Part shown: positions 1 through 40,104 of the stretch, piece by piece
Layout: every line of letters starts with the position of its first letter
Numbering within the stretch: the stretch's first letter is position 1
Origin: a virus
DNA length: 40,104 bases
IMG/VR virus record: IMGVR_UViG_3300038505_000020
Location: 1 to 40,104 of that record
Strand: one strand, 5' to 3'
Notes under the pieces: model-generated
The model's input: only the letters and a program-made list of their open reading frames with translations
What the model was told of the DNA's origin: nothing
Database searches by the model: none
Program-made: the position numbers and the translations under genes

Positions 1-107
1 TTCAATGTAAGAAATAACTTGACTTACGTAATCTCTGTCTATATCATTTGCAAATCTTATCCTGTCCCAATTTTTTAAAACAGTGTTTTCAATCCTAATA
101 TGTTTAT
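1..107. repeat. Terminal overlap, left copy. It is identical to 39998-40104 and indicates circular closure or terminal redundancy; the unique unit is 39,997 bp.
   Basis: Direct comparison of the two ends: ttcaatgtaagaaataacttgacttacgtaatc...aatcctaatatgtttat is present at both ends. Confidence 0.95.
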
Positions 108-1215
108 TGATTGATTCAGTAAATGGCTTAACTCCATGATTTCCTCGAAGCTTGTACAAGTCCCTAGCACAATATCCCTTATCTGCATTTGATTCTACTA
201 TAATTGTACCAACGTTAAATTTATTTAGTAAATTTATTATTTCTTGATATAGTGAGGAAACATTTTTTTTCCAAACGTAACCTCTTACTTGAATATATTC
301 ATTATTAACAATCCCACCGATTGACAAAGCTGTATAGTTTGACCCACCATATGCTGGGTCAAGAAATGCTAGATTGTGAACATTTGTATTCCATTCAGAA
401 TATTTTGGCTCTGGAAAAAATGCTGTCTCTTGTCTAATATGCATAAGCTCATAATTACAAGCAAATAGAGAACTACTCATTCCAGCTCGAAGTAAATTAA
501 TTTTTTCCTGTGATATTATATTTGTATCATAGATTGAGAATTTTTTTATTTCTGGAACTATTTTTTCTATTATATTCCAGGCGTCCTCTTCATGCCATGG
601 GGTACCAGTAAATAAAATTTTTCCTGAATCTTTAACTATATTCAGCAATTCCATAATATAATTTTTTGTCTTTTCTCTCTCTGCTTTGGAGTATCTGTCT
701 TCAATTGTAACGATATCATCAACTATTATGATATCTGGATGTCGCCCTGTTATTGACGCACCACAACCAACCGCAGTAAGATTGCTATCTGGAAAAAATT
801 TTTTTTTGATTGATAAGTCAAATTTAAGCTTTGACCAATTCTCTCCAATCAAAGATTCAAAATTATAAAACAAACTAAATAATTTTTTGCATTTTTCGGA
901 TTCAAGAATTTTTTGAATTGTATAAAGGACTTCACTTGCTAGTGTCTCTGTTTTTCTAACTAATAATATTGTTATGTCTGGATTAATTAAAAACAATAGT
1001 ATTATTCCAACGATGATTGAAGTAGTCTTATATGATTCTCTATGTGCTTGTATCGATTTATTCCCCTCAGTAAAAAATAAATATTTTATCCAGTCTGAAT
1101 GAATTTGTGAAAGCTTTGTAAATCCAAAATAGTGACCTAGAAAATGTGGATTCTCCCTAATTGCGAAATAAATTTTTTTTTCTGTCTTAAATCTATCATT
1201 GGACGGATTGCTCAA
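1..1215 (-). CDS. terL: Terminase large subunit, N-terminal and central part. The gene wraps around the window junction and ends at 39908.
   Basis: It is absent from the ORF track because it runs off the left edge. My manual translation of the minus strand (codons phased on multiples of 3) is open from 1230 to 1. It reads ...IQAHRESYKTTS (Walker-A-like), PDIIIVDDI (Walker B), FTGTPW, and LDPAYGGSNYTALSIGG / VESNADKGY (RNaseH-like nuclease). The start is ambiguous: TTG at 1215, or ATG at 1199 plus a -1 shift in an A9 run. Confidence 0.85.
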   Translation of the reverse strand, partial: MSNPSNDRFKTEKKIYFAIRENPHFLGHYFGFTKLSQIHSDWIKYLFFTEGNKSIQAHRESYKTTSIIVGIILLFLINPDITILLVRKTETLASEVLYTIQKILESEKCKKLFSLFYNFESLIGENWSKLKFDLSIKKKFFPDSNLTAVGCGASITGRHPDIIIVDDIVTIEDRYSKAEREKTKNYIMELLNIVKDSGKILFTGTPWHEEDAWNIIEKIVPEIKKFSIYDTNIISQEKINLLRAGMSSSLFACNYELMHIRQETAFFPEPKYSEWNTNVHNLAFLDPAYGGSNYTALSIGGIVNNEYIQVRGYVWKKNVSSLYQEIINLLNKFNVGTIIVESNADKGYCARDLYKLRGNHGVKPFTESINKHIRIENTVLKNWDRIRFANDIDRDYVSQVISYIE

Positions 1216-1558
1216 TTGCGTTATTCTCTTTTAATAATCCTAAGGAAATAAATTCTTTCTCTAACTCTATTACATTTGGCTTAGCATCAATATTGACGTT
1301 TGCGTTGTAAATAAATTCTTTAGGTTTTCCATACATTCTATCTAATATAAGAGAAGCTGCTCTAACATTACCTTTGATTGCACTAACGCATAAATTTCTT
1401 AACATTACTTCAATGACTGTTTTATTGTCTTTTAATTCTTCAGTTAAAATTCTTGACAAAATAACTTCAAGACTCTCTATTTCTTTTATTTTTTTTTTAT
1501 CAAAGCTGCCTTTTTTTCTGCCTCTATTTTTGGGCTGATATGAAGAACTAAATCGCAT
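1196..1558 (-). CDS. terS: Terminase small subunit.
   Basis: 120 aa. It has a basic N-terminus (PKNRGRKKGS) and ...VRAASLILDRMYGKP, typical of small terminases. It lies immediately upstream of terL, and its TGA stop overlaps an ATG (ATGA at 1199..1196). An RBS (GGTGGAG) lies upstream. Confidence 0.65.
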   Translation of the reverse strand: MRFSSSYQPKNRGRKKGSFDKKKIKEIESLEVILSRILTEELKDNKTVIEVMLRNLCVSAIKGNVRAASLILDRMYGKPKEFIYNANVNIDAKPNVIELEKEFISLGLLKENNAIEQSVQ

Positions 1559-1631
1559 TTGTTTTTTACTCCACCGTTTTATGATTCGTTTTGATCTCGT
1601 TAGTAAATAAATATTTTTTACAAAATACTAT

Positions 1632-2195
1632 TCATATGTTTAGTTTATTAAGAATATTTATAAGCCCTTCTGAGGGACTGCTTCCATACTCAAAAAGTTT
1701 TTTCCTTACACTGTCAAATTCTTCTTTTGTCCCAAACTGCAAAACTAAAGTAAATTTTTTTACTTCTTCTGAATCTATATTAACTTTATCTGATTCATCA
1801 AGATCATTTTCTAAAAAATTTATTTCATAAAATCCCCAGTCTTTCAACTCAACTAAATCAAAATCTTCTGCGAGAATATCAAAATCCCAATTGCCAAATG
1901 AAATGTTGTCTTTAATAATGAACTGTCTTTTTTTTGACTCGTCCCAATCGTCGCACAATATAACAGGGACTTTTTTTACTCCAATTTGTTTTAACGCTTC
2001 AAGTCGCATATTGCCGCCAAGGACTGTATAAGTACCGTCAAAATTTGAGAAGCAAACCAAAGGTCTTTTTTTAAGCATTTCTGGAAATTCTTTTACTGAA
2101 TTGACCAATTGCTTAAAACGATTATCTTTAATAAGTCTAGGATTTTTATTATTTCTTTTTATTAAGTTTACATCAATGTCAATAATTTCTTGCAT
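1632..2195 (-). CDS. ParB/Srx-like N-terminal nuclease-domain protein.
   Basis: 187 aa with KNPRLI and GGNMRLEALK motifs (ParB-N fold). It is the first gene of the packaging cluster. No ParA gene or parS-like array is visible. Confidence 0.6.
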   Translation of the reverse strand: MQEIIDIDVNLIKRNNKNPRLIKDNRFKQLVNSVKEFPEMLKKRPLVCFSNFDGTYTVLGGNMRLEALKQIGVKKVPVILCDDWDESKKRQFIIKDNISFGNWDFDILAEDFDLVELKDWGFYEINFLENDLDESDKVNIDSEEVKKFTLVLQFGTKEEFDSVRKKLFEYGSSPSEGLINILNKLNI

Positions 2196-3064: not shown

Positions 3065-3937
3065 TTACAAACTATTAATAAAGTCTTCAAGAATATAATA
3101 TTCTTCAAGAGAGACTTCATTCTTTTGTTTCTTTTTGACTAAGCTTGAAAATAGCTCATTCTTACTTTTTCCAGAAGAGAAAGCATTGTAAATTTTTTCT
3201 TTCATTTCTTCCAACTTTACTTCATTGGTTATTAATTCTTCTGAAGTTTGAATATTGCTATTGTTTACATTTGAGTTTTCATTTTCTTTTTCTTTCTCAT
3301 TATTATTGTTATTCTGCTGATTGGAATTTACAATTGTACTTATATCAGTGTAATCTTCCAAGTCTTGCGTGAACAACATTCCAGCCATTGTAGATTTTAT
3401 CGTTGCATCTACAAAGCTTCTCTTAGCTGACATCTTTAAGCAAGTGTTATACACGTCTGCAATGTCAGGATTCTCAACGTATATAAGCTCATAGAAACCC
3501 CAGCCGTTTTCAGTTTTAACAGCTTCTTTCCCTTGTAGCTTATATTCATTTTTTCTAATTTTATAGTCTTTAGGAATTTCACCTAAATATTTTTTTTCCT
3601 TTCTATATCTATATTTTTTTTCCAAAGTGCTGCAGGAACCAACTCCTGTGGAAATAATTTTTCCACTTTTGTCAAAAATTTCTGTAGTAGAAATATATTC
3701 TCTATGGTTATTTTCGAGAAGTTTTACTTCTACAATTGTTTTTGACGTATACCCAAAAAGCAAAAGAAGTTTTTCAGCTCCTGCTTTTAGCAAAGTTGGT
3801 TTGTCAGTGCCTGGAATTCTACCATAATCTACATTCTCAACTAAGACTTCATCATAAGCTTTCTTTAACAGCTCAAGTGAAATCTTAATATTATTTATTT
3901 TCTCAATGTTTATGTTTTGAACTTTTTCTAGCTCCAT
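3065..3937 (-). CDS. Conserved phage early protein, possibly a single-strand annealing/recombination protein, with an Asn-rich linker and a C-terminal tail.
   Basis: 290 aa. The motif VDYGRIPGTDKPTLLKAGAEKLLLLFG ... NTCLKMSAKRSFVDATIK...FTQDLED resembles a widespread phage early family; I cannot decide between an Erf/Rad52-like SSAP and the N4 gp49/Sf6 gp66-like family. It sits in a module with two nucleases. Confidence 0.35.
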   Translation of the reverse strand: MELEKVQNINIEKINNIKISLELLKKAYDEVLVENVDYGRIPGTDKPTLLKAGAEKLLLLFGYTSKTIVEVKLLENNHREYISTTEIFDKSGKIISTGVGSCSTLEKKYRYRKEKKYLGEIPKDYKIRKNEYKLQGKEAVKTENGWGFYELIYVENPDIADVYNTCLKMSAKRSFVDATIKSTMAGMLFTQDLEDYTDISTIVNSNQQNNNNNEKEKENENSNVNNSNIQTSEELITNEVKLEEMKEKIYNAFSSGKSKNELFSSLVKKKQKNEVSLEEYYILEDFINSL

Positions 3938-4350: not shown

Positions 4351-4798
4351 CGTCTATTTCTCCATTAATAATATATGAGTCAATAATTTTTTTAGCTTTT
4401 ACTATTGCATCGTTAATTTCTATACCTTGCCCAATTGTAATAACGCACATTTTGGATTTTGCAAGTGCTTCTTGTAATATATTTTGCTCTTCACTCAATT
4501 TTCCTTTTTTTGTTTTTAACTCAAGCCCTAAGGAAGAAAAATATTGAGTTGAGAAAAAAATTATTATATCAGGAAATCCCCGCCATCCGTTTAGTGCTTT
4601 TTTTATCTTAAGTAAATTAAAATTTTTTGTGGGAATTGATAATCCCTGTAAGTGATTAGATAAAAAAGGAATTTTGGGATAACTTCTCTTGAGATATTGA
4701 ACTACCTCATAGTGAATTATGTCTTCTTGATTTTTAAAACGAAATCCCTTGTACTTGTACATAATTTTTTTACCATTTAACTCTATTGTAAACTTCAT
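4331..4798 (-). CDS. VRR-NUC family (PD-(D/E)xK) nuclease.
   Basis: 155 aa. The motif GWRGFPDIIIF...LGLELKTKKGKLSEEQ matches the VRR-NUC G-x-PD ... E-x-K ... S-x-x-Q pattern. Confidence 0.6.
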   Translation of the reverse strand: MKFTIELNGKKIMYKYKGFRFKNQEDIIHYEVVQYLKRSYPKIPFLSNHLQGLSIPTKNFNLLKIKKALNGWRGFPDIIIFFSTQYFSSLGLELKTKKGKLSEEQNILQEALAKSKMCVITIGQGIEINDAIVKAKKIIDSYIINGEIDDGIFKK

Positions 4799-5918
4799 CT
4801 ATCCGAACGTAATTATTCGGATTCAAAACAAACTGGATCGTTGGTACTGCAATCCCACTAAGCCAATAAGAATAAAGCTCCTGAAAAAATTTATTTCCGC
4901 TGCCTTCTTTTTCTTTTGTCAATATTTTTTTTATCTTAATGACTTTTAAGATCTTTTCTGCTATCTTCTCAAGAGATAAAAGCTTGTCGTTGTACACTCT
5001 TTCCATAAGTGAATAATTTGCCGTTTGCATTATATCATGTGAATTTTCAATCAACGCTTGTTTGTCTTTTCTTAAAGCCATTACATTTGGGACATAATAA
5101 GAATCTTCACTAAAAGCAGAAGTGATCTTCTCAATATATCTTACGCATTGGTCTGGATTCAATGTATTCTCTTTAACGGGATATTCTTCATTTGTTTTTT
5201 CAATTGCTCTTATAAAGCTGTCAAGAATTTCTTTCTCTTTTTGTGATTTTTTGGTCAATAAATTTTCTTCCTCTTTAGTCAATAAGTTTCCATCTTCTTT
5301 TGTCAAAAAATTTTTTTCTTCTTTCGTCGAAAAATTTTTTTCGTGCGGATATATATATATATTCTGGTTTTTATTGTCTGGTTTTATTATTCTGTTTTCT
5401 ATTAATGCTTGCCCCCGTTGGCAAACTTGTTTGTCATGTTGACAAGCTTGTTTGTCATGTTGACAAGCTTGTTTGTCCACACTGACAAACTGATATTCTT
5501 GTTTTTCGAGAATTTCATCAATTTCTCCCATTGAATCTTGCGTATTTTGAGTTACATTTGCTTCATCATTGGCTTGATTAGATTTTCCTTCTATAAAGTT
5601 AATAATTTTTTCTTCATTCAATTTAAAATATCTTCTTCTTGGCATTCCCGCATTTTTTATTTCAATAAATCCAATTTTTTTTAAAAAATTTATTACTGGG
5701 TCAATTCTTCTTCTTTTGAGTCCAATTTCGTTAAATTTTTCATAGGTATAATAAAACCAGCTTCCATCCAGCAGCATGTTATTATCTCTAAAATAAACAT
5801 ACTTATCTATTAGCTCGGATAAAATAACTGTTCTATCTAATCCGATCGCTTTTATCAATTCTTTATTGACCATCAAGAAACTATGTTTTGCTAAATAATT
5901 GTCTATTGTTTTCTTCAT
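4770..5918 (-). CDS. Replication initiator/organizer: N-terminal winged-helix domain, repeat-encoded linker and a C-terminal domain.
   Basis: 382 aa. The N-terminal ~110 aa is duplicated in the next gene. The central part is encoded by tandem DNA repeats (DKQACQH x3, EEKNFLTK x4), an architecture like lambda O with the origin inside the gene. Confidence 0.5.
   Translation of the reverse strand: MKKTIDNYLAKHSFLMVNKELIKAIGLDRTVILSELIDKYVYFRDNNMLLDGSWFYYTYEKFNEIGLKRRRIDPVINFLKKIGFIEIKNAGMPRRRYFKLNEEKIINFIEGKSNQANDEANVTQNTQDSMGEIDEILEKQEYQFVSVDKQACQHDKQACQHDKQVCQRGQALIENRIIKPDNKNQNIYIYPHEKNFSTKEEKNFLTKEDGNLLTKEEENLLTKKSQKEKEILDSFIRAIEKTNEEYPVKENTLNPDQCVRYIEKITSAFSEDSYYVPNVMALRKDKQALIENSHDIMQTANYSLMERVYNDKLLSLEKIAEKILKVIKIKKILTKEKEGSGNKFFQELYSYWLSGIAVPTIQFVLNPNNYVRIDEVYNRVKW
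5248..5345. repeat. Four tandem ~24-bp repeats (TTTnGTCAAnAAnTTT..CTTC) inside the rep gene; candidate iterons.
   Basis: GTCAA/GTCGA cores lie at 5253, 5278, 5302 and 5326, spaced 24-25 bp apart. Confidence 0.6.
5418..5492. repeat. Three tandem 21-bp repeats (TTGACAAGCTTGTTTGTCATG) plus a terminal inverted repeat (GTTTGTC-cacact-GACAAAC); candidate iterons.
   Basis: The units lie at 5418-5438 (degenerate), 5439-5459 and 5460-5480. Each contains inverted TGACAA/TTGTCA half-sites around an AAGCTT centre. An (AT)7 tract at 5349-5362 lies between the two repeat clusters. Confidence 0.65.
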
Positions 5919-5942
5919 GTTTTTCCTCCTTAATAATTTTTT

Positions 5943-6290
5943 TCAAAAATATAATTTTCCTTCAATGAAGTTAACAATTTCTTCTTTATTCAATTTGAAA
6001 TATATTCTTTTTGGTATTCCTGCATTTTTTATTTCAATAAAACCCATTCTTAGTAAAAAATTTATTATTGAATCAATTCTTTTTCTTTTTAGTCCGATTT
6101 GGTTAAATTTTTCATAATTATAATAAAACCAGCTTCCTTCAAACAGTATGTTATTTTCTTTTGAGTATGTATACTCATTCATTAGCTCTGTTAGTACAGC
6201 TGCCCGATCTAATCCAATTGCTTTTGTCAATTTTTTATTGATGATTAAAAAACCATTCTGCATTGAATAATTATCTATTGTTTTCTTCAT
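5943..6290 (-). CDS. Stand-alone paralog of the Rep N-terminal winged-helix domain.
   Basis: MKKTIDNYSMQNGFLIINKKLTKAIGLDRAAVLTEL...FIEIKNAGIPKRIYFKLNKEEIVNFIEGK aligns with residues 1-115 of the 4770..5918 product. The true start is probably the ATG at 6290, which has a GAGGAG RBS; the track's 6305 TTG start lies in the leader. Confidence 0.6.
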   Translation of the reverse strand: MKKTIDNYSMQNGFLIINKKLTKAIGLDRAAVLTELMNEYTYSKENNILFEGSWFYYNYEKFNQIGLKRKRIDSIINFLLRMGFIEIKNAGIPKRIYFKLNKEEIVNFIEGKLYF

Positions 6291-6295
6291 GTTTT

Positions 6296-6360
6296 TACTC
6301 CTCAATAATTTTTTTCAAAAAATACTTGAATTTTTTACTATCTCTACAATTGTAGATATT
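6296..6360 (-). promoter_or_regulatory. Promoter/operator/leader module, copy 1: CTACAATTGTAG palindrome (6344-6355), then GAGATAGTAAAAAA, then the GAGGAG RBS.
   Basis: The minus strand reads CTACAATTGTAGAGATAGTAAAAAATTCAAGTATTTTTTGAAAAAAATTATTGAGGAG. GATAGTAAAAA is shared with the -10 region of the main early promoter at 10040. A near-identical copy lies at 6571-6640. Confidence 0.45.
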
Positions 6361-10293: not shown

Positions 10294-11076
10294 ATGATAA
10301 AAGATCTTATAAAAAAATATTTTATAAATAAATTTAAAATATCAAAGGTAGATAAAGTAGATGAAGTAGATAAAGCAAATGAAGTAGAAGAAACTCAAGA
10401 AATTATTGATAATAGGAAAGAAAATAATAACAAGCTTACTAGAATTAATCCGAGATACAAAATCTATACTGATACAGTCAAGATTTTATCAAATCCCGAA
10501 AATTCACAATTGGACAATAAATTAAGTCCCAATAGTGCTTGCAACGTTACAGCATTGCAAATAGCTATGTCACTTGATTGTAGTATTACTGACGACGAGC
10601 TTTTTATTCTTTGCAATTCCAAAGAGATTGCAGAAAGAGTCAAAAAAAAATATCCAAAAGATTGGTCTTGGATAAAAAATTTTTTTACAAGAAATTGTGC
10701 AAATGAAGTTTGGGTTGTCTTGGAAGAAGTTTGTAAATATATTATTGGAAATGATTATTGCAAGATTATTCACAATTTATCTATTCAAAAAATTATTGAC
10801 GAAATAAATATGGGATATGCTGTAGTTGTCAATGGCAAGTTTACTCATTCGGGACATTTTGTTACAATTGTAGGATATGATCTAAACAAAGGTTCTTATA
10901 TAGTTAATGATCCTTTCGGCGATTGGAATACTAGATATAAAGTAAAAAAATTTCTAAACTTGGAATATTCAATCGAGAAGTTAAAAATAAAAAATACAAT
11001 ACCAAACAATAAAGAAGCTTTTCTTTCCAATATGGCAATCTTAGTTCATTCAGACAGGAGAATTCCAGCTATATGA
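10294..11076 (+). CDS. Papain-like cysteine peptidase (C39-like fold); candidate endolysin.
   Basis: 260 aa. It has a putative Cys nucleophile in PNSACNVTALQIAMSL and a His in GKFTHSGHFVTIVGYD..YIVNDPFG. The N-terminus is encoded by five 9-bp repeats (KVDKVDEVDKANEVEE). It is translationally coupled to the two downstream genes, the last of which is spanin-like. Confidence 0.45.
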   Translation: MIKDLIKKYFINKFKISKVDKVDEVDKANEVEETQEIIDNRKENNNKLTRINPRYKIYTDTVKILSNPENSQLDNKLSPNSACNVTALQIAMSLDCSITDDELFILCNSKEIAERVKKKYPKDWSWIKNFFTRNCANEVWVVLEEVCKYIIGNDYCKIIHNLSIQKIIDEINMGYAVVVNGKFTHSGHFVTIVGYDLNKGSYIVNDPFGDWNTRYKVKKFLNLEYSIEKLKIKNTIPNNKEAFLSNMAILVHSDRRIPAI

Positions 11077-13020: not shown

Positions 13021-13144
13021 TTTTTTTAATCTCCTTTTACTTTTAGATTTTTTTTATAGAAATATTTTAACAGCTAAACTTTTGTTTAAATGTTTATTAA
13101 TTCTAATTCATTTTAAATCAAAAAAAGTAAATAATTTTTTAAGT

Positions 13145-13225
13145 TTTTCTAAATTTAAAAAAATTTAGTAAATACAATAAAAAAAATCATTAGAAATAGA
13201 AATACATATACAAAGAGTCTTTTTA
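13145..13225. repeat. Intergenic module W, related to 10085-10200.
   Basis: AAATTTAAAAAAATTTAG...AATAAAAAAAATCATTAGAAATAGAAATACATATACAAAG matches module Z almost position by position. Confidence 0.5.
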
Positions 13226-13399
13226 TTATTTTTGGATCTTTTTTTGGTATTTTTCTAAATTTTTATTTATTATATTTTTATTTATCAATTTTTTATTGAC
13301 TTCTGGAGCAATAACAGAGTCAAAAAACAAACCAAAAAACAAAAGTGCTGGTGCGATATAAAAACAAAATATTTCTTGAAACTTATCAATTTTACTCAT
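13226..13399 (-). CDS. Small single-pass membrane protein.
   Basis: 57 aa starting at the ATG at 13399, which follows GAGG. The product is MSKIDKFQEIFCFYIAPALLFFGLFFDSVIAP plus a basic tail. Confidence 0.4.
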   Translation of the reverse strand: MSKIDKFQEIFCFYIAPALLFFGLFFDSVIAPEVNKKLINKNIINKNLEKYQKKIQK

Positions 13400-13411
13400 T
13401 TTTAACCTCAA

Positions 13412-13491
13412 TTTTTTTCTAAAAATTTTCTAAAAAAATTTCAAAATCATTCCAAACCCATTCCAAAAAATTCTAAAAATTCCAAAGCTTT
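13412..13491. repeat. Array of TTCCAAA / TTCTAAAAA boxes, copy A.
   Basis: TTCTAAAAATTTTCTAAAAAAATTTCAAAATCATTCCAAACCCATTCCAAAAAATTCTAAAAATTCCAAAGC. A ~30-bp block, CATTCCAAAAAATTCTAAAAA(A)TTCCAAA, is shared with 14065-14155. Confidence 0.7.
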
Positions 13492-16821: not shown

Positions 16822-16825
16822 AAAA

Positions 16826-17920: not shown

Positions 17921-17953
17921 CATTTTTTTATTTCCAAGTCTAGTTTTTTTTCC

Positions 17954-28152: not shown

Positions 28153-28752
28153 TTAATAAGGCCTACCTTTGGAAATTAATTGACTTACTGAATCTTTTAT
28201 TCCAAGTCTTGCTTGAATAACTCTGGAAATTTTTTCTGCTTTATATAGTAAAGAATTTTCATCTAATTCAAGCTCTAAATTTACAATTGTATATTGGCTC
28301 ATTCCTTTTGAATTAGTTAAAGTAGCATTATGCTCGAAATCACATTTGTTTACAAAATACTCAAGTGGTGCAGAATGCATACCCCAAGAATATATAACTT
28401 TCGGAACGCCAGTGAAAGAAATTTTTTTACTAGATATAATAGATGAAATAGTAGGATTATCTGCATTTCTTAATATCTCAAATGCTTTAAGTATATTTGA
28501 ATTTCCTAATATACTCTTTCTATTAATTATTGGCAACGAGAAAGAAATTATTCTATTCTCATTTCTTACTCCTATTTTTGGTTTATAATTTCTTCCAATT
28601 ACAGGAGTTTCAGCATAAATAATTTTTTTACTATCCGTTATATTCGTTGGTATAGTGGGACTTGTTATGAGGATATTAAAATCTTTTATAAATAAAAACC
28701 ATGGTAAATTCTTATCTCGAAGTTTTACTTGCTTTATGGAAAAATTTTTCAT
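28153..28752 (-). CDS. Tail protein downstream of the tape measure (tube-initiator / XkdP-position protein).
   Basis: 199 aa. The call rests on position only. Confidence 0.35.
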   Translation of the reverse strand: MKNFSIKQVKLRDKNLPWFLFIKDFNILITSPTIPTNITDSKKIIYAETPVIGRNYKPKIGVRNENRIISFSLPIINRKSILGNSNILKAFEILRNADNPTISSIISSKKISFTGVPKVIYSWGMHSAPLEYFVNKCDFEHNATLTNSKGMSQYTIVNLELELDENSLLYKAEKISRVIQARLGIKDSVSQLISKGRPY

Positions 28753-28755: not shown

Positions 28756-30300
28756 CTACAACAACCCCTTAGCTGGTGCAAATTTATTGAATTGTTTTTT
28801 CAAGCTTTCGTTACTTGATTTTATTTTCTTTTCTACTTCTTTGGCAATTTCTTGCGGATTGTCCCCTGTTATGTTGAATGTAAATTTATTATCTATATTA
28901 TTCTCTTGTTTTACATTTGCAGAAGTCCTCGTTATTTCCCCATTTGTTTTTTCCGATGGAGAAAATTTTTCTTGAATATTTTTTACGTTTTTTTGGTTTG
29001 ATATATTCTCAACATTTACATTTGTATTTCCCGAAAATAAATTTCCGACTAAAGATCCAATTGATTTAAATTTGTCTACTAAAGAAAAAATTTTTTCTAC
29101 AATATTATTTATTAAATTGGAAATAAAATTTATACCTTCTTGGAATTTTGAAACTAAATCTTGCCAAACTTGTTTAACTGAATTTATTGCTTCATTTATT
29201 GGAAATATATTATTTACAAATTCAATAATTTTATTACTTAAACTATTAAAATATTCTCTTATTTCATTTATTGTACTTGTAAAAAAATTTTTTATCTTAT
29301 CCCAATTCTTGTATACAAGCAATATAGCACCAACCAAAGCAACTAAGCTAGCTATTATAAGAGTAATTGGATTAGCTAATAGTGCCGTGGAGAATGCTAT
29401 AATAGAAGTAGTAGCAGAAACAATCGCAGGAATTAAACTGGCAAGAAATATCTTTCCTAACGCAACAAGTCCAACTGTTAATAATGCAATTCCACCAGTG
29501 GCCAACATTTGAACTAATATTCCGAATTCATCAATTGCTTTTTTGGGATTTTCAAACAATTGTGCTACAAAAGAAATTGCTTCTCCGAACTTATTTAAAA
29601 TTGGCATTGCGATTTCTTGGAATACGTATTTTATCCCTTTTGCAATTGCTTCAAGGACTGGCTCAAGAAGAACCATTACAAATGTTAATATGAAAGAAAT
29701 TTTTAACACGATGAAGTTTAAAAATTCAGATAATTTTGTTGCTGCTCCTTTTATGTCATTACCAGCAACGCCAAATACATTTTTAATAATTTTTTTCACG
29801 GAGTCAAATAATTGTTTCACAACTCCAACAATTGCACGAAAAATATTTCCAACAACATTTCCAAACATTACAAATATTTCCTTATTTTTTTTAACAAATC
29901 CCACAACTGCTTGTAATATTGGGACAACTTGGTCTTTTAAAGGTTTAAAAAAGTTTGAAAATATAATATTCCCAATGTCTGAAAAAGCTTGATTCACTTC
30001 TGGCATTTGCCCCATTGCTTTATTGTATAACCCAGTCGCAAAGTTAGCAAACAAAATACCCTTTGCAAAATCAATAGCACTTGATGAAGTTTGTTTAATA
30101 ATTTCTTGATTTTCTTTTAATTTGGAAATAAATTTTTCTTGCGTTGGTATAATTGATGAAATGGAACTTGATACATTTTTAAAAAAATTTTTTGACTTAT
30201 CTACAATTGTATTCAAGGAAGAAAAAGCATTTGATAAATTGGATGCTTTCTTCTCTGCATTCTCTGAAAACAAGCTTATCTCAATGCCAATTTCTTCCAT
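28756..30300 (-). CDS. Tail tape measure protein.
   Basis: 514 aa. It is helical, with a central hydrophobic block (LLTVGLVALGKIFLASLIPAIVSATTSIIAFSTALLANPITLIIASLVALVGAILLV). It lies directly downstream of the frameshifted chaperone pair. Confidence 0.7.
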   Translation of the reverse strand: MEEIGIEISLFSENAEKKASNLSNAFSSLNTIVDKSKNFFKNVSSSISSIIPTQEKFISKLKENQEIIKQTSSSAIDFAKGILFANFATGLYNKAMGQMPEVNQAFSDIGNIIFSNFFKPLKDQVVPILQAVVGFVKKNKEIFVMFGNVVGNIFRAIVGVVKQLFDSVKKIIKNVFGVAGNDIKGAATKLSEFLNFIVLKISFILTFVMVLLEPVLEAIAKGIKYVFQEIAMPILNKFGEAISFVAQLFENPKKAIDEFGILVQMLATGGIALLTVGLVALGKIFLASLIPAIVSATTSIIAFSTALLANPITLIIASLVALVGAILLVYKNWDKIKNFFTSTINEIREYFNSLSNKIIEFVNNIFPINEAINSVKQVWQDLVSKFQEGINFISNLINNIVEKIFSLVDKFKSIGSLVGNLFSGNTNVNVENISNQKNVKNIQEKFSPSEKTNGEITRTSANVKQENNIDNKFTFNITGDNPQEIAKEVEKKIKSSNESLKKQFNKFAPAKGLL

Positions 30301-31811: not shown

Positions 31812-33578
31812 TTATAATGGTATCACTACACCAACACCGATTGCTAAGCTTGTCAATGGAGCTGGAGGGAAGAACCGAACAAAAATATTACCTTCTCCAA
31901 TTGCAAGCTGTGAGTTAGTGTTATTGAATTGGTCAGCTTGCACAATGAAGACATCTTCAAATGTACTAACCGAACCATCCGATTTAAAAAATTGACCAAA
32001 CGCACCATTGCTATCAATCCCAAAAGGAAATGAACCGTCATATAATTTCTTTCCGAAATCTTTTATTGAATCCGCATAAGTTTTTAGTAATGAAAGTTTA
32101 TTTGGTCTATTTTCTACTTTATATAATGATTCAACAGAAGAAATTTTTATAAAATTTTGCATCACTAAATAATTTATAAACAAAGCTCCAGTATTTGTAC
32201 TTGGAGTATAAGCACTTCTATTGATTAATCCTCTGCCTTGTATGTACTGAACTATATTTACTCCAGCTTGACATATATCAGTACGATCATCTTCGCTGAA
32301 TTCATCTTCAGTAGTTTTTTCTGAAAGAAATCCCAAAATTGGTAGATCATCTCCAGCAGGAACACGATGAAAACCAAATGAATAAAATGAACGAACAAAT
32401 AATCCAGCAATTGCACCGCATACTGGAATACTTAAGCTTGGATTTGAACCAACTCCGATTGGGTCAAAAACTTTTCGATAGGAACTTACAATAATTCCTT
32501 GAACTTGATTACTTCTTTGGTAGAAATTTCCAAGAGAAATTAATTGCTCTTTGGAAAGATTTTTCTGAATGTGATAAATCCAGATGGGAGTATCAAGTCT
32601 ACTTTGGCAATAATTTTCTCCAAAGACATTAACTTCTTTCTCATTACTTTCAGAATTGAATAAAAATCTTACATTTGTATTATCAAAGCTAGTCAATAAA
32701 TTATTCCAATCTGCAATTGTAGGAGAACCTCCATCGGAACCATTTTCTAAAAAATTTATTTCTGTAGTGTCTTCTGGAAAAGAACTATATAAAGTACTTG
32801 AACTATTTAAATCTTCTATATCTAAGTACGGATGATTTTCAAAAACTTTTTGACAATAGAACTCGGTATTCTCTGGCTCCATTGTAATCCAAACATCATT
32901 TTCAGGAATATTTAACTTAATAGGAATTCCATTTCTATTTTTTCGATATGTTACAACTTTAAAGCCTTTGACGTTTACAATTGTATCAATTGCGACGCTA
33001 CTAGATAATGCAGTAATAGTACATTTTTTATTTCCTTCATCAATGGAAATAACTTTCACAAATTGAGTACCGATTTCGAGAACGTCACCTGTGCGAACAC
33101 CAATAACGCTTTGTAAAGAAATTTCTGTATCTCCAGTACTTGCAGCTGCAGTAGTTTTTGTTGTAAATCTATTTCCTTTTTCTATTGTAAATCCTGTTTT
33201 ATTTCCATCTAATGATTTGTCAGAAATTTTTTTATAACATGCTTTAATTTTTATAGTGTTATTGTTGTTTGCGTCTTTTACATTCTTATATGATTGAACT
33301 GCAGTAGATGAGACGAATGGTCTAACAATTACTTTACAACTATTTCCATTCAAGTTGGAAAAAATTGACTCAAGGACATATCTACCAAGATAGCCTTCTT
33401 TGTAATCTCCAAGTTTTACATCAATCTCTGAAACTTGATTTATCTCAATTGTTTGATCAATTCCTCTTGAGAACCTTCCAACCATCCCAACTATGTTAAA
33501 TTGTGCAGGCTGTACTACATTTCCTACTTGTGGGGGTAAGTTATATCCAAAAACTCCTTGTCTTCTTAATGTTGTCAT
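31812..33578 (-). CDS. Contractile tail sheath protein.
   Basis: 588 aa. PVCGAIAGLFVRSFYSFGFHRVPAGDDLPILG ... DICQAGVNIVQYIQGRGLINRSAYT matches the conserved sheath C-terminal domain pattern. Confidence 0.75.
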   Translation of the reverse strand: MTTLRRQGVFGYNLPPQVGNVVQPAQFNIVGMVGRFSRGIDQTIEINQVSEIDVKLGDYKEGYLGRYVLESIFSNLNGNSCKVIVRPFVSSTAVQSYKNVKDANNNNTIKIKACYKKISDKSLDGNKTGFTIEKGNRFTTKTTAAASTGDTEISLQSVIGVRTGDVLEIGTQFVKVISIDEGNKKCTITALSSSVAIDTIVNVKGFKVVTYRKNRNGIPIKLNIPENDVWITMEPENTEFYCQKVFENHPYLDIEDLNSSSTLYSSFPEDTTEINFLENGSDGGSPTIADWNNLLTSFDNTNVRFLFNSESNEKEVNVFGENYCQSRLDTPIWIYHIQKNLSKEQLISLGNFYQRSNQVQGIIVSSYRKVFDPIGVGSNPSLSIPVCGAIAGLFVRSFYSFGFHRVPAGDDLPILGFLSEKTTEDEFSEDDRTDICQAGVNIVQYIQGRGLINRSAYTPSTNTGALFINYLVMQNFIKISSVESLYKVENRPNKLSLLKTYADSIKDFGKKLYDGSFPFGIDSNGAFGQFFKSDGSVSTFEDVFIVQADQFNNTNSQLAIGEGNIFVRFFPPAPLTSLAIGVGVVIPL

Positions 33579-35716: not shown

Positions 35717-36573
35717 CCAACAACTCCTGTAATATATTTTTTTAGTAAATTTTTTGCTTTGCGAAATAAATCTTTTCTTATCTCTGTATATTTTCCTTCT
35801 GCCCCAAATGACTGTGAATAGCCTTCAACGGATAGAGAAGAACCACCGCCTTCAATTCCAACTTGATAACTCAATAAATTATATACCGATAAATAAATTA
35901 TAGCAAGTTTTAAATCAATTGGAATCTCGTTTATGCTGTTATATCCGCAAGTGTATTTTACTTTTATATTATTTTTCCCGATTGGAAATAAATAATTTTT
36001 TCCAACTAATTTAACTACATCAAATTTAGTCAAAAAATATTTACTTGAATCTATGATTTGATTGTTTGTCAAAAAATTACTATCACTTGAAAATGATACT
36101 TCCACTATATCTATAACATTCTTTCTATCTAATAATATCTCATTTGTCCCTTGCCCTGAATGATATTCAATAATTTCTGTAATTGAACTTATAGAATATC
36201 CAAGCAAGCTCTCAATATAACTTATTGATTGATTTATTGAATTACTGAATAGGTCATATTCAATCTCTACAATTGTAGCATTCCCGAAATCCTGGAGAAC
36301 ATCCGCATTACTAAAATCAAATTGAATCTTACAAGAAGGAGGAGAAATTATTTTAGTAAAATTATTTACTTTGTGAAATCCAGATATAACACCTGAATCA
36401 ATGTATACGTAACAATTGTTATGTATTATTTGAGGTATGTTTTGAATAGTTACTTCCGTAACACTTGAACTTACTTGATTTACAGAAATTATTTCATGAG
36501 TTGATAATTTTTTAACAAATGGCAAATTAAAAGAATTTATATAGTTTAAAATACTTTCTTCTATACTTGCCAT
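35710..36573 (-). CDS. Head-tail connector/adaptor protein.
   Basis: 287 aa. The C-terminal IPIDLKLAIIYLSVYNLLSYQVG...VEGYSQSF resembles gp6/gp15-type adaptors. Confidence 0.4.
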   Translation of the reverse strand: MASIEESILNYINSFNLPFVKKLSTHEIISVNQVSSSVTEVTIQNIPQIIHNNCYVYIDSGVISGFHKVNNFTKIISPPSCKIQFDFSNADVLQDFGNATIVEIEYDLFSNSINQSISYIESLLGYSISSITEIIEYHSGQGTNEILLDRKNVIDIVEVSFSSDSNFLTNNQIIDSSKYFLTKFDVVKLVGKNYLFPIGKNNIKVKYTCGYNSINEIPIDLKLAIIYLSVYNLLSYQVGIEGGGSSLSVEGYSQSFGAEGKYTEIRKDLFRKAKNLLKKYITGVVGW

Positions 36574-36827: not shown

Positions 36828-38205
36828 CTCTCAACCCCCTATACCACACAGAAGTCTTCTCATATGCTGGAACAATTGCTCCATAAGTTTTCACAAGAAA
36901 TTCTTCTTTATCGTCTGTTTGTGCTAGTGGCTGAATGGAGATAAGTCCATCAACTCTATTTCCAGTACTGTGAACATAAGCAAACTTTCCTAGCCCTTCA
37001 TACTTGTGAGTATCAATCAATAAAATATTTTCTGGATTTACCCCAGAGACTTGCAAAGCAGGAATTTCACTTTGCTTATTCGTTGGGACTTCACTTCCTG
37101 GAGTTAAAGAAGTAACCTCAAAGCTGGTTACTCGTCCAGAGATTGTACCAGCAGAATCATAAGTATAAGCAGAGAATATTCTCTTCAATGTTACTGAAGT
37201 TGGACTATTACCTAAGTATAACTTATAGTAATATGCATTTGGCACATCAGTCCAGGAAATAATAAATTTTTGACTAGATCCACCACCAGATAACGTTATA
37301 TTGAATTGTGGACTTGGTATAGTTTCCCCAAATTGAGTAATAGCTACAAGTCTTCCGTAATACGTATCATCTGTTAAGTTACCCCCAGTTATAGAAGGAG
37401 AACCAGCAACAACAGTACCAACAGAATCAGCAGCAGTAACACCTCGACCGCCCATAAGAGTTGATTCCAATATTGGAATATCACGATATGTTAATAATCG
37501 CCAACCTCCAGAAATTTCTGTAGTTGCTAAAGCTCCAGGTCTGTTTTGAAACTGCGTAACATTTGTTAACCTTCTAGATACAAGAGACAACATTTCTGGA
37601 GTCATAACAAAATATCTCTCATGTCCTAGTCCACCATTTCGATTTGAAGCATCGATCATGTCGTCAAGAAATTTCAAATCTGTACCTGGCGGAGTAGATG
37701 GATTACCTCCTGAAAATCCATTCAAGATATTTGTCTCGATCAATGTATACCAGCCGTCAAAGTCATAAGCATTTGCATTTGCATTTCCAAAAACAATTGA
37801 GTTAATTAAATCCAAAGAATGAGCTCTTAAAGAATTTTCAAACTCAATCGCCTTGGCATCATATGCTGACTCTGAACTGTCTTGAAGGAATGAAGTTACC
37901 GCACCTTTTCTTCTAATAATTTTGAGGTTTACGCTAGCTCGTTGAAAGTTTGAACTTCTTGTATGAGTAACTGCATTCTCTCCAACTGGAGCTCCAATTT
38001 GTCCCAAGCTCAATAATTTATTGAATTCGTGAGTTTTAGATTCAACTTTTGTTGGCTTGATTATATTAATCTCTGGTGTTAGTCTTTGTACTGTATTAGT
38101 AATAATTTTTTCTAAATCTTGAGGTACTAAAGCACCACCAGAAGTGTTGCCTGACGTTAAAGCTTTTTGTAACTTTAATTTATTTAAGTCAAAAATTTTT
38201 TTCAT
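36820..38205 (-). CDS. Major capsid protein (HK97 fold) with an internal Fn3/Ig-like insertion.
   Basis: 461 aa. The N-terminal GGALVPQDLEKII and central FLQDSSE..., YFVMTPEM fit the HK97-type MCP family. Residues ~255-385 contain ISWTDVPNAYYYKLYLGNSP, an Fn3-like W..V..A..Y.vY motif. Confidence 0.7.
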   Translation of the reverse strand: MKKIFDLNKLKLQKALTSGNTSGGALVPQDLEKIITNTVQRLTPEINIIKPTKVESKTHEFNKLLSLGQIGAPVGENAVTHTRSSNFQRASVNLKIIRRKGAVTSFLQDSSESAYDAKAIEFENSLRAHSLDLINSIVFGNANANAYDFDGWYTLIETNILNGFSGGNPSTPPGTDLKFLDDMIDASNRNGGLGHERYFVMTPEMLSLVSRRLTNVTQFQNRPGALATTEISGGWRLLTYRDIPILESTLMGGRGVTAADSVGTVVAGSPSITGGNLTDDTYYGRLVAITQFGETIPSPQFNITLSGGGSSQKFIISWTDVPNAYYYKLYLGNSPTSVTLKRIFSAYTYDSAGTISGRVTSFEVTSLTPGSEVPTNKQSEIPALQVSGVNPENILLIDTHKYEGLGKFAYVHSTGNRVDGLISIQPLAQTDDKEEFLVKTYGAIVPAYEKTSVWYRGLRVE

Positions 38206-39851
38206 TGCATACCTCCAAAGATTGAAGAAATAAATTGAACTGAATTATCACTAACAGTACCAGTCAAGTTTTTATTGACTTTTTCACCATTTAAGATTTT
38301 TTGCACATCTTCCATCGTGTAACGTTGACCTAAGTTTGAATTAAAGCCTTTTTGAACTTGAACACTTGTTTGATTTTGAGTGTTTAAGTTTGTCAACATT
38401 TTTTTTAACTGCATAATTTCTTTCTTACTATTCGCAAGCTCTTTAGCTAGCAGAATAGATTTAGAAGAAAATTTTTTACTACTTTTTTCGTTACTTTGGT
38501 TTTTTGATTTATTTAATTTTACAATTGTTTTTGCAATATCTTGACTAAAGCCAAGTGACTTAAGCAGCTCTTCTTGTAATTCAGAGTCTTGCTCACTTAA
38601 CACTTCTTCAGTGTCAATGACACCGCTTTCGTCTGAATCAGCACTTTCTTCATCTGACTCAACGTCAAGAATGCTCTTAATTTCTTTCTCTTCTTCTTCA
38701 TCTTGTTTTTTTGCTTCTTCTTCTTCAATGTTTTCTTTCAAATCTTCAGACTTGGCAATAATTTGTTTTAAAGCTTTTATTCTTTTGATTTGATTTGATT
38801 TGATTAAAGAGAAAGAATTTTTTGACTTAGCTTCAGTAATTGAATTTGACACTTGCTCTAAAGCTGCAGCTTCTTGGTTTTCACTGTCAAGAATTTCTTG
38901 CAACATGTTAATAATTTCTTGAATTTTTTCCTTCATTGTTTTATTGTCCTCCGTTATATTACTTGATACATCTTGAGAACCTTGCAACTGCTCTTCAGTT
39001 GTAGGGGAATCCAATTGCAATGTACCAACATCAATTAGATTTTCCAATAGCTCATCTTCATCCTCAGAAATAACTTCTTTCGGATATAAAAAATTAATTT
39101 CCTTGAATAAATTAATTTTTTTTTCCACATATGAACTATAAGCCGCACGTAAAAATGATTCCTTTTGCACAATATCCATAGTCTCATTTGTAAGGATTTC
39201 ATCTTCTGCTTTGGACATTGCATTTTCAATTTCTTCTAAGTTTTCAATAAAATCTTTATTTCTAAGCTTTTCCGCAGTAATTTGTTTCTCGAAATAATTT
39301 ATTTCATTTTTTCGGAAACTTTTTTCTATTGCTTGCACGATTGAAGGAGTGTAAGCTGGCTTGCTTACTAATGAGACGCCTGGGTCTAACTCTATGTAGT
39401 CAATAATTCTTCCACTTGAAGTGAAAGAAATTTTTTCCTCAGGGACAAATCCCTCAACTGAAAACCCAAACTCTTTTGGATTCTTGTAAGGAGGGAGACC
39501 ATTTGCTTGAAGCCAAACTTTGTTTGCTTCTTCATTATCGAACAATTCAAATTCTGCGTATAAGTCCCCATTACTTAATTTTTGTATAGACCTTAAAATT
39601 CCGATATCATTTGTAAAATCTTTACCATGGTTAACGTAAAGCAAAATATCTTTTGTTTTGGATTGCTCTATCATGCCGTTGATAGCATTCTCACTCATTC
39701 TATCGCCATGAGCATCAACTTGCTGTCCCGAAATTACCCCGCAAAGAAATTTCTTTCCTTTGTCAATTTTTGTATACTTCTGGTTTTTTTGAACTGGCTG
39801 CCTTGTCTCGGGACTAGCAATTGTAAAAATAAATTTTATTTTACTATTCAT
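38202..39851 (-). CDS. Prohead protease fused to an acidic scaffolding domain.
   Basis: 549 aa. The N-terminal ~180 aa (GVISGQQVDAHGDRMSE...LLYVNHGKD..IG) is like the HK97 prohead protease. The rest is an acidic coiled coil (EEEEAKKQDEEEEKE, ESDEESADSDESG). It lies between terL and the capsid gene. Confidence 0.6.
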   Translation of the reverse strand: MNSKIKFIFTIASPETRQPVQKNQKYTKIDKGKKFLCGVISGQQVDAHGDRMSENAINGMIEQSKTKDILLYVNHGKDFTNDIGILRSIQKLSNGDLYAEFELFDNEEANKVWLQANGLPPYKNPKEFGFSVEGFVPEEKISFTSSGRIIDYIELDPGVSLVSKPAYTPSIVQAIEKSFRKNEINYFEKQITAEKLRNKDFIENLEEIENAMSKAEDEILTNETMDIVQKESFLRAAYSSYVEKKINLFKEINFLYPKEVISEDEDELLENLIDVGTLQLDSPTTEEQLQGSQDVSSNITEDNKTMKEKIQEIINMLQEILDSENQEAAALEQVSNSITEAKSKNSFSLIKSNQIKRIKALKQIIAKSEDLKENIEEEEAKKQDEEEEKEIKSILDVESDEESADSDESGVIDTEEVLSEQDSELQEELLKSLGFSQDIAKTIVKLNKSKNQSNEKSSKKFSSKSILLAKELANSKKEIMQLKKMLTNLNTQNQTSVQVQKGFNSNLGQRYTMEDVQKILNGEKVNKNLTGTVSDNSVQFISSIFGGMQ

Positions 39852-39907
39852 AATACAAATTTAACTAGTTAACGGATGGTTAGTATTTGTCAAGAAATTT
39901 TTTTTTC

Positions 39908-40104
39908 CTATTTTACAAAAAAAGATTTCTTCTTTACAATTGTAAGAACTCGAATTAATCCACTTAGAGAATCCGGGGCGTCGTCTGGCTCTTCTCCTTC
40001 AATGTAAGAAATAACTTGACTTACGTAATCTCTGTCTATATCATTTGCAAATCTTATCCTGTCCCAATTTTTTAAAACAGTGTTTTCAATCCTAATATGT
40101 TTAT
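39908..40104 (-). CDS. terL: Terminase large subunit, C-terminal end (continuation of the 1..1215 feature).
   Basis: The frame continues ...SYIEGEEPDDAPDSLSGLIRVLTIVKKKSFFVK, with stop TAG at 39910..39908. The DDAPDS acidic motif is typical of TerL nuclease C-termini. Confidence 0.85.
   Translation of the reverse strand, partial: KHIRIENTVLKNWDRIRFANDIDRDYVSQVISYIEGEEPDDAPDSLSGLIRVLTIVKKKSFFVK
39998..40104. repeat. Terminal overlap, right copy of bases 1-107.
   Basis: Same 107-nt string as at the window start. The open terL reading frame continues seamlessly from position 1 into 39997. Confidence 0.95.

Follow-up and report, generated by a model that had tools for sequence, protein, structure and literature searches.

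Highly iterated palindromes (HIPs) are short palindromes that occur in cyanobacterial genomes far over expectation. They track the specificity of methyltransferases, and methyltransferase-linked models have been proposed for their origin (PMC4390886). HIP1 (GCGATCGC) is enriched in all reading frames, was judged to be under selection, and is spaced non-randomly (PMC5861425). Palindromes of the HIP1 type have been known for about three decades and still have no agreed function; they were studied in megabase cellular genomes, where causes are not easily told from effects. Here we describe an array of the hexamer CAATTG in a virus genome, IMG/VR record IMGVR_UViG_3300038505_000020, positions 1 to 40,104; this whole stretch of 40,104 bp is called the window. 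The CAATTG excess in the window is real, strong, and unusual.

The array is a variant of a known, unexplained kind of genome feature and not a new category. With HIP1 and other cyanobacterial HIPs it shares a short palindrome far over expectation, enrichment in all frames, and an imprint on codon and amino acid usage. In both cases the spacing is non-random, related genomes carry alternative palindromes, a connection with methyltransferases and mismatch repair is suspected, and the function is unexplained. A first-pass annotation, made from the letters of the window without database searches, had proposed HIP1 as the nearest precedent, and this is supported by the all-frame, DNA-level, and non-randomly spaced nature of the array. 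There are also differences. The excess is 15- to 300-fold for HIP1 but 4.6- to 8-fold here, and the window motif is AT-rich, with a 6-bp core in a weak 10-bp dyad. Furthermore, its spacing is even, not periodic, and it occurs in a phage genome in which no cognate methyltransferase was found. Since the HIP class in the strict sense requires a host-genome-wide motif and a cognate methyltransferase, and the CAATTG array is known from the phage genome alone, we refer to it as HIP-like.

CAATTG excess, reading frames, flanks, and spacing

The last 107 bp of the window are identical to the first 107 bp, showing that the window is a circular assembly, namely, a complete, circularly permuted phage genome with 39,997 unique bp. 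No CAATTG site is counted twice in the terminal repeat. Exact counting gave 103 copies of CAATTG, 28 of the 8-mer ACAATTGT, and 12 of the 10-mer TACAATTGTA (the contrast sequence named beside the latter is TACTATAGTA), in good agreement with the earlier tally of 102 hexamers and 25 to 30 8-mers. The hexamers start at the following positions:

Sites 1 to 13: 702, 1213, 1888, 2106, 2332, 2579, 2648, 3331, 3733, 4189, 4432, 5201, 6215
Sites 14 to 26: 6347, 7156, 7402, 7735, 7759, 8047, 9016, 9042, 9652, 10507, 10865, 11594, 11835
Sites 27 to 39: 12372, 12725, 13548, 13668, 14224, 14637, 15075, 15791, 16310, 16544, 16965, 17082, 17346
Sites 40 to 52: 20400, 20637, 20962, 21012, 21313, 21387, 21623, 22143, 22374, 22618, 22680, 22731, 22912
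Sites 53 to 65: 23343, 23786, 24101, 24514, 24601, 24757, 25102, 25307, 25327, 25344, 25663, 25698, 25710
Sites 66 to 78: 26336, 27119, 27272, 27955, 28284, 29058, 29532, 29557, 29643, 29829, 30204, 30636, 30880
Sites 79 to 91: 31588, 31650, 31898, 32408, 32714, 32978, 32987, 33446, 33986, 34251, 34554, 34590, 34952
Sites 92 to 103: 35204, 35294, 35674, 35916, 36270, 36413, 36873, 37794, 38522, 39012, 39818, 39937

The count is far above what base composition or coding would give. Markov models of orders 0, 1, 2, 3, and 4 predicted 12.8, 19.0, 27.6, 35.6, and 39.1 copies, respectively, and among the 4096 hexamers CAATTG ranked first at orders 1 to 4 and second, after AAAAAA, at order 0. Two kinds of codon control were used, with 500 shuffles each. 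When synonymous codons were shuffled within each gene, so that protein sequence and codon usage were kept, 38.9 ± 4.9 genic copies were expected compared with 101 observed (z 12.7). With codons permuted, the expectation was 21.9 ± 4.7 (z 16.7), corresponding to a 4.6-fold excess. The highest CAATTG count in any shuffle was 55. The genic copies of ACAATTGT (26) likewise exceeded both the synonymous shuffle (6.4) and the codon permutation (1.4).

The excess is specific to this palindrome. CAATTG had the highest z score of all palindromes in the window (16.8), and the next one reached 5.9. Other AT-rich palindromes were close to or below expectation (GAATTC, 20 vs 18.4; TAATTA, 36 vs 43) or unremarkable in the same controls (AATATT, TTTAAA, CTTAAG, and GTTAAC), and AAATTT (z about 6) and AAGCTT (37 vs 15; z about 5.5 to 6) were mildly raised. 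Hence, neither of the two outcomes that the first-pass annotation had named as fatal to its finding, loss of the excess in codon-shuffled genes or an equal fold enrichment of other AT-rich palindromes, was observed. When the 16 CANNTG words were compared, only CAATTG was strongly enriched, and among matches to TACANNTGTA the AT-centered version was present in 12 copies and the TT-centered version in 3. A general enrichment of CANNTG or TACAnnTGTA was ruled out, since the CAATTG-centered versions alone were raised. Under the same model, the top hexamer of Leptospira phage LE3 reached z 6.4 compared with 14.4 in the window. Among unrelated 8-kb genome loci, 0 of 57 had any palindrome with z ≥ 6; 4 of 45 viral loci had one with z ≥ 8, of which two were repeat artefacts and one was a contig rich in CGATCG, the HIP1 core.

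CAATTG is the target of MunI/MfeI, and phages normally avoid host restriction targets. The array matches a target of this type in the hexamer itself and in the symmetric, dimer-type recognition pattern. It differs in that CAATTG is enriched, while avoidance in the window concerns CCGG (2 copies), GCGC (1 copy), CGCG (0 copies), and GATC (49 vs 81), and in that no restriction-modification gene is present in the window. TTAA was also depleted (369 vs 533), and the palindrome AGCT was over-represented (163 vs 103; z about 6).

If the terminase gene described below is included, 102 of the 103 sites are coding. They are read as xCA-ATT-Gxx (75 sites), CAA-TTG (15 sites), or xxC-AAT-TGx (12 sites), so the earlier statement that the motif is nearly always read in one frame was too strong. 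In shuffles that preserve the protein sequence, the counts expected for CAA-TTG, xCA-ATT-Gxx, and xxC-AAT-TGx were 4.8, 30.7, and 3.3, compared with 15, 74, and 12 observed; each frame was thus 2.4- to 3.6-fold up. Because every frame is enriched while the protein sequence is kept, neither peptides nor codon pairs account for the excess. Indeed, every synonymous route to the hexamer is in use. Gln-Leu is spelled CAA-TTG 15 times and CAA-TTA 6 times, although TTG accounts for 32% of TTR codons overall; the codon ahead of AAT-TG ends in C in 12 of 25 cases (48%) compared with 14% overall; and NCA-ATT-G is found 74 times compared with 5 for NCT-ATT-G. Amino acid sequences are also affected. The tripeptide T-I-V occurs 18 times, and S/T/P/A-I-V/A/D/E/G tripeptides are about twice as frequent as expected (frame-1 potential of 30.7 vs 14.5 by codon permutation).

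The bases flanking the hexamer were compared at the 76 frame-1 sites, where they fall on nonequivalent codon positions (left, 3 and 1; right, 2 and 3). A was found at -1 in 46% of the sites compared with 23% in the background (p 8e-6), and T at +1 in 39% compared with 20% (p 1.6e-4). G at -2 occurred once compared with 14% (p 0.005), and C at +2 occurred once compared with 10% (p 0.008). At ±1 and ±2 the left flank did not differ statistically from the mirror image of the right flank (p 0.22 and 0.84), while at ±3 and ±4 there was no mirror symmetry and each position matched its own codon background. Symmetry limited to ±1 and ±2 defines the element as a dyad of about 10 bp, H-A-CAATTG-T-D, the kind of footprint that a protein with two-fold symmetry should have on duplex DNA. 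A codon-pair or peptide-motif origin is excluded by the frame counts and the flank symmetry. We conclude that a force at the DNA level, powerful enough to alter codons and amino acids, acts on the window; all-frame enrichment, symmetric flanks, bent synonymous choice, and even spacing bear out the earlier suggestion that it acts on DNA and not on protein. The full dyad TACAATTGTA is present at these positions:

3329-3338
6345-6354, the sole intergenic site, upstream of the replication-initiator-like gene 5943-6305 (minus strand)
10863-10872
14635-14644
17080-17089
23784-23793
25661-25670, opening a cluster of three sites at 25663, 25698, and 25710
28282-28291
30202-30211
32976-32985, with a second site directly after it at 32987
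36268-36277
39935-39944, within the 3' end of the junction-spanning terminase gene, where it encodes T-I-V

Two sites had been described as non-coding. The one at 6347 is intergenic, as claimed, and is the only such site of the 103; the other, near 39946, is coding and lies in the C terminus (…VLTIVKKK…) of the 434-amino-acid (aa) product of the junction-spanning gene. Non-coding DNA contained 1 site compared with 0.63 expected in about 2.5 kb, too little sequence for power, and the idea that non-coding DNA is spared was dropped for this reason.

The sites are spaced more evenly than chance allows. After removal of the largest gap from data and simulations alike, the gaps had a coefficient of variation of 0.69, compared with 0.93 simulated (P 8e-5). 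The second-largest gap was 1,014 bp compared with a simulated median of 1,602 bp (P 3e-4), and the evenness persisted when random sites were drawn only from positions with at most one mismatch to the motif (P 6e-5). In line with this, CAATTG is missing from none of the 22 genes that are 600 bp or longer.

The sole long site-free stretch spans 3,054 bp (17347-20399). The probability of finding no site there is 4e-4 at genome density and 0.19 at un-enriched density, and 14 positions within one mismatch of the motif yielded no site. It contains the following features:

17954-18157, minus strand: truncated 67-aa fragment of what we take, from its sequence motif, to be a lipoprotein-type GDSL/SGNH hydrolase, with a signal peptide, …ILFFGDSLTEG…, and a premature stop; adjoins the tRNA
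18219-18291, minus strand: tRNA-Asn (GTT)
18837-19415 and 19806-20126, plus strand: cargo open reading frames (ORFs) with no family matches

Long A/T runs mark the cargo-like region 17921-20151, and the GDSL fragment has its own TTGACA-type promoter-like sequence. No homologs of the 67-aa fragment were returned, the homolog search with ORF 18837-19415 matched itself only, and the scanned metagenome contigs contained no copy of the exact tRNA-Asn sequence. The stretch 17347-20399 was probably acquired recently as cargo and would represent DNA that has yet to be shaped by the process; judged by its sequence, the tRNA/GDSL segment looks like captured cellular DNA.

Mismatch neighbors, related phages, and candidate readers of the site

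Among the one-mismatch classes, only TAATTG/CAATTA was depleted (35 vs 64 by codon permutation with strands pooled; z -3.9, ratio 0.54). It is the C-to-T product at the outer cytosine of CAATTG, and a depleted C-to-T neighbor is the footprint expected from cytosine methylation combined with T:G-directed short-patch repair; we take it as a hint of such a process. In E. coli with Dcm/Vsr, CCWGG is over-represented and CTWGG/CCWAG is depleted. Like this very-short-patch (VSP) footprint, the window combines an excess of the target palindrome with depletion of a single neighbor class, the C-to-T deamination product. It differs in its far larger excess, its even sites, a deficit unequal to the excess, and the lack of a Vsr or C5 methyltransferase gene in the window. 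The neighbor deficit amounts to about 29 copies compared with a CAATTG excess of about 80, and variants at the inner positions were raised (CAAATG/CATTTG, 70 vs 38; CAAGTG/CACTTG, 29 vs 12). The shortfall of the deficit, the raised inner variants, and the even spacing argue against repair bias as the sole explanation. Even spacing favors selection, and a repair component may contribute as well, given the partial deficit of TAATTG/CAATTA. A similar pattern was detected in the related phage contig L005, where the sole depleted neighbor of the over-represented CCGG was CTGG/CCAG (25 vs 47).

No CAATTG enrichment was found in the relatives L003/L004, L005, L248, L249, L250, L251, L372, L373, L006, and LE3. 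Some of them have excesses of other palindromes, of which those in L003/L004, L005, and L248 held up in comparison with codon shuffles, in each of the three frames, and across genes:

L003/L004: GTAC, 86 vs 45, z 8.7; evenly spaced, P 4e-4
L005: CCGG, 57 vs 23, z 9.5; GTAC, 0 vs 20; GATC depleted
L248: CCCGGG, 15 vs 1.2, z 12.4; GTAC, 1 vs 34; GATC, TCGA, and GGCC depleted
L006 (Leptospira prophage): milder excess of CCGG (z 6.5) and GATC (z 5.3)

Six relatives showed no strong palindrome excess. That relatives enrich some palindromes and nearly eliminate others points to strong methylome-type pressures in the group. L248 carries genes for QueC, QueD (PTPS), QueE (radical SAM), and FolE (GTP cyclohydrolase I), the 7-deazaguanine DNA-modification pathway, and the contig of another relative encodes a C5 DNA methylase (PF00145). 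L005 and L248 (1-12735 and 1-21590, respectively) are related phage contigs with 32% G+C. In L005, TTAG/CTAA words are also in excess, including five copies of the palindrome CTAATATTAG. L003 (1-9836) has 93 GTAC in 9.8 kb with a strand-asymmetric flank (AGTACA, 31 vs TGTACT, 6; GTACA, 63); this asymmetric GTAC flank of L003/L004 is unlike the symmetric CAATTG flanks in the window. Amino acid residues encoded at the sites were about as conserved in relatives as other residues (0.38 vs 0.42, p 0.34), with the relatives, at no more than 49% amino acid identity, being too distant for a fair test; a confinement of sites to variable protein positions was rejected on these values.

Larger collections were scanned for three CAATTG within 80 bp (viral contigs), two TACAATTGTA within 30 bp (185,579 species genomes), and the pattern ACAATTGT…CAATTG…CAATTG (metagenomes). 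The viral-contig matches listed were mostly collagen-like GGACCAATTGGACC repeats and chance matches. Dense CAATTG in the viral contigs L018, L059, and L106 stems from collagen-like Gly-X-Y repeats spelled GGA-CCA-ATT-GGA-CC, a trap for density searches; collagen-type GGACCAATTGGACC repeats are absent from the window. No locus among the species-genome matches listed exceeded 1.6 CAATTG sites per kb. The metagenome matches listed were tandem or iteron-like repeat arrays only. Four of them (L323, 121-310; L257, 2540-3750; L352, 1174-1480; L265, 3115-3400) consist of 18- to 67-bp repeat units centered on (T)TACAATTGTAA or ACAATTGT and look like iteron/operator arrays or satellite-like repeats. Two unrelated viral contigs have palindromes of their own, CGATCG in L020 (16 vs 1.5; the HIP1 core, presumably from a cyanophage) and GTATAC in L052 (16 vs 2.5). 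In the literature, we found no description of CAATTG as an iterated or over-represented palindrome.

One protein of the phage, as judged from sequence matches, stands alone in the genome as a recognizable candidate for a dimeric, site-specific DNA binder:

1632-2195, minus strand: ParB_N protein, 187 aa (Pfam ParB_N, 5e-8; PHROG ParB-like families)

Its nearest solved structure is the N-terminal domain of Noc (E 1e-3); other than this match, PDB sequence searches with four candidate proteins were uninformative. It also matches the N-terminal part of ParB-methyltransferase fusions and is itself without the methyltransferase domain. In the Noc/ParB system, a ParB-family protein acts on many dispersed palindromes of one replicon, and in this respect the phage with its ParB_N protein is similar. 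Noc sites differ in being 14 to 16 bp long and present about once per 50 kb, and a ParB_N protein is also encoded by relatives without palindrome excess.

The 10-mer TACAATTGTA is known in another setting. TACAnnTGTA is the operator ("cop box") of BlaI/MecI/CopY regulators. Pairs of TACAATTGTA were found beside XRE-type helix-turn-helix genes in at least 28 Bacteroidota loci and beside BlaI/MecI/CopY-type genes in at least 14 Firmicutes loci (42 of the 120 listed). These pairs (L128-L247), 12 to 40 bp apart from center to center, are conserved operator-like elements, and in many Flavobacteriaceae and Bacteroidales the XRE-type gene beside them is divergent from an M14-like peptidase gene. Although the 10-mer is the same, such operators occur in one or two intergenic copies, compared with 102 of 103 intragenic sites here, and no homolog of the XRE-type or BlaI/MecI/CopY-type regulators is encoded by the phage. 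On these two grounds the array does not classify as a set of repressor operators.

Explanations for the array

Our preferred reading, held tentatively and with rather less than even confidence, is that of a HIP-like array that is read by a symmetric, probably methylation-linked activity supplied by the host and is kept by selection for coverage, with a possible contribution of T:G repair. The dyad H-A-CAATTG-T-D would be the target of a protein that reads duplex DNA with two-fold symmetry. The likeliest reader would be a sequence-specific DNA methyltransferase-type activity, which we place in the host because the phage has no detectable methyltransferase. The genome would be selected for at least one site per kb, in every gene, as HIP1 is kept in cyanobacteria. 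Sites would arise by point changes, synonymous where possible and otherwise amino-acid-changing, and their creation may be aided by preferential correction of T:G to C:G at TAATTG/CAATTA. They would be retained since a short-range, site-dependent process needs dense and even coverage; strand or "self" marking, repair direction, and protection are candidates for this process.

Several observations weigh against this reading. Pfam and PHROG scans of the 40 ORFs revealed no methyltransferase, restriction enzyme, or Vsr in the phage, and the catalytic motifs [DNS]PP[YFWH] or PCQ were present in no ORF of at least 100 aa, in agreement with the first-pass annotation, which saw no methyltransferase gene. 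Methylation of CAATTG and a host-wide excess are presumed in this reading. One probable cellular piece (17.9-18.3 kb, in the 3-kb gap) is without CAATTG; if the present host was the donor of this cargo, that host is not rich in CAATTG. Among the matches listed, the viral, genome, and metagenome scans revealed no other DNA with a genome-wide CAATTG excess. The sites are not shared with the nearest relatives, and the key conservation argument for HIP1 therefore has no counterpart here. Unlike for HIP1, no dominant spacing period was detected (P 0.89), and strict periodicity was ruled out. Finally, the neighbor deficit is only partly specific, with TAATTC/GAATTA and TAATTA at 0.75 to 0.76 of expectation, and the pool of CAATTG, TAATTG/CAATTA, and TAATTA is enlarged (172 vs 134 expected), showing that converting T-variants alone cannot explain the excess.

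The reader could instead be encoded by the phage. The array would then bind a dimeric protein (the ParB/Noc-like protein 1632-2195, a winged-helix-like early protein, or an unassigned early protein) that organizes, condenses, partitions, or shields the chromosome, and the palindromes of relatives would differ because the specificity of this protein has diverged. We regard this as unlikely, though deserving serious attention. A symmetric 10-bp dyad with even coverage is what a structural binding array needs, and the site-free, probably foreign insert fits a phage-specific rather than host-wide motif. CAATTG enrichment is not inherited in the lineage, yet palindrome excess recurs in it with different motifs. 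Dimeric repressors reading exactly TACAATTGTA exist, as the Bacteroidota and Firmicutes loci indicate, and Noc, the nearest structural match of the ParB_N protein, binds dispersed palindromes. However, homologs of the TACAATTGTA-associated regulators are missing from the phage, ParB_N is also present in L251 and LE3, which lack palindrome excess, no phage known to us uses about 100 specific sites in this way, and the C-to-T neighbor deficit is not predicted. An improbable explanation, in our view, is that the sites are a functionless by-product: a host 5-methylcytosine or N4-methylcytosine (m5C/m4C) methyltransferase and a T:G very-short-patch endonuclease or glycosylase would turn TAATTG/CAATTA into CAATTG, a pairing that would be especially useful at 65 °C, and a phage that resided in such a host for long, perhaps as a plasmid prophage, would drift to the host signature. 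The depletion of just the C-to-T product speaks for this, as does an apparent conversion of about 57 to 59% at two synonymous T/C positions (CAA-TTA to TTG; nnT-AAT-TG to nnC). So do the like signature for CCGG in L005 and the established VSP effect on CCWGG/CTWGG abundance in E. coli; the sample is indeed from a sediment at 65 °C (PMC5498146). Neutral repair predicts random (Poisson) spacing, though, and the sites are strongly under-dispersed. The excess also far outnumbers the missing neighbors, the combined pool is enlarged, and the inner near-cognates are enriched, while known VSP effects are modest and not 4.6-fold. The window encodes no C5 methyltransferase and no Vsr- or Mig-type enzyme, and since no integrase was found in the phage, long host residence is an assumption.

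CAATTG might also be a "self" or protective signal for a processive host machine, either a Chi-like stop for RecBCD/AddAB, acting as a brake on the acquisition of CRISPR spacers or Argonaute guides, or an uptake or recombination signal. A palindrome would work from either DNA end, and dense, even sites would limit DNA loss. The even spacing, in which gaps do not exceed about 1 kb, and the orientation independence agree with this, hot-spring communities are rich in such defenses, and the pressure changes proteins, as documented for uptake sequences. Uptake signal sequences/DNA uptake sequences (USS/DUS) and Chi indeed resemble the array in having about one copy per kb, preferred frames, and an imprint on proteins. 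However, all characterized Chi and uptake sequences are asymmetric, 5 to 12 nt long, read on one strand, and a property of cellular genomes; CAATTG is palindromic, and its symmetric flanks point to a dimer on duplex DNA. No direct evidence for such a signal was obtained, and we consider it a long shot. Least credible, to the point of being nearly negligible, is a coding artefact due to a favored tripeptide, codon-pair bias, protein repeats, or AT-rich composition. Although 75 of the 102 coding sites share one frame and T-I-V is recurrent, all three frames exceed the protein-preserving shuffles, the flanks are mirror images, every gene of at least 600 bp carries sites, nothing alike is seen in AT-rich control loci or for other AT-rich palindromes, and collagen-type repeats are absent. 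The rest of our confidence goes to explanations outside those listed.

A wider conjecture, which we consider doubtful, covers the lineage as a whole: each member of the Leptospira-phage-like group may keep a dense and even palindromic "barcode" (CAATTG here, GTAC in L003, and CCGG/CCCGGG in L005 and L248), read by a symmetric phage or host reader of an undescribed, lineage-switching kind, which would mark self or protect or organize the replicon over distances of up to 1 kb. If this is true, the barcode is the phage counterpart of HIP1 and offers a tractable 40-kb model with the site-free 3-kb insert as a negative control. The value of the window lies in being a small comparative system that combines an AT-rich, restriction-type hexamer, motif-free acquired DNA, and sister phages with other palindromes. 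Identification of the motif's reader would reveal the way in which such motifs come about, the reason for them, and why a phage multiplies a restriction-type site instead of purging it. Furthermore, palindrome excess could, beside palindrome avoidance, link uncultured phages to a host or lifestyle.

Source and gene content of the window

A sequence 100% identical to the genome, which has a G+C content of 27.8%, was assembled in both IMG sample 3300006068 and SRA run SRR5650808. The IMG sample is from Bijah Spring sediment, Yellowstone, at 65 °C and pH 7 (PMC5498146; bioRxiv 10.1101/169672). Genome bins from this spring include Spirochaetes, Deferribacteres, and Chlorobi (PMC5498146), and the contig is not linked to a bin; as a guess, a thermophilic spirochaete host would suit the kinship with Leptospira phages. 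No close relative was found by megablast among 50,697 phage records, and no relative was found in the viral-contig protein scan. The nearest named kin, which share one head-module protein at about 37% identity, are Leptospira phages LE3 and LE4 and a prophage of Leptospira langatensis. Besides the genes listed above, the following were recognized:

15277-16821, plus strand: portal (family match)
4770-5918 and 5943-6305 (minus strand), among others: replication-initiator-like genes, the latter with PHROG replication-initiation matches
38202-39851, minus strand: head-module protein with a homolog at 13099-14745 of LE3; comes after the portal there and in other relatives
39908-40104 plus 1-1215, minus strand, across the window junction: likely large terminase, 434 aa (weak terminase nuclease-domain match and terL position in relatives)
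DUF5681 protein (Pfam match)
VRR-NUC/resolvase-like gene (PHROG match)
C39-like peptidase or endolysin, and spanin (family matches)

ORF 38202-39851 had been annotated as terL. Its 37% identity to the LE3/LE4 counterpart identifies it as the head-module protein instead, and the junction-spanning gene is likely the true large terminase. The portal gene and the next gene, encoding 364 aa (15277-17920, plus strand), lie on the opposite strand about 20 kb from the head genes and adjoin the cargo region. Since relatives keep terL, portal, and head protein contiguous on one strand, an inversion or rearrangement is likely here.

A tandem duplication of about 370 bp (5582-5949 and 5954-6321; 82% identity) takes in the 3' part of gene 4770-5918 and gene 5943-6305, with weaker copies extending to about 6640. 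The duplicated region, 5582 to about 6640, possibly represents an origin or a set of iterons; it includes the one TACAATTGTA copy that is intergenic (6345).

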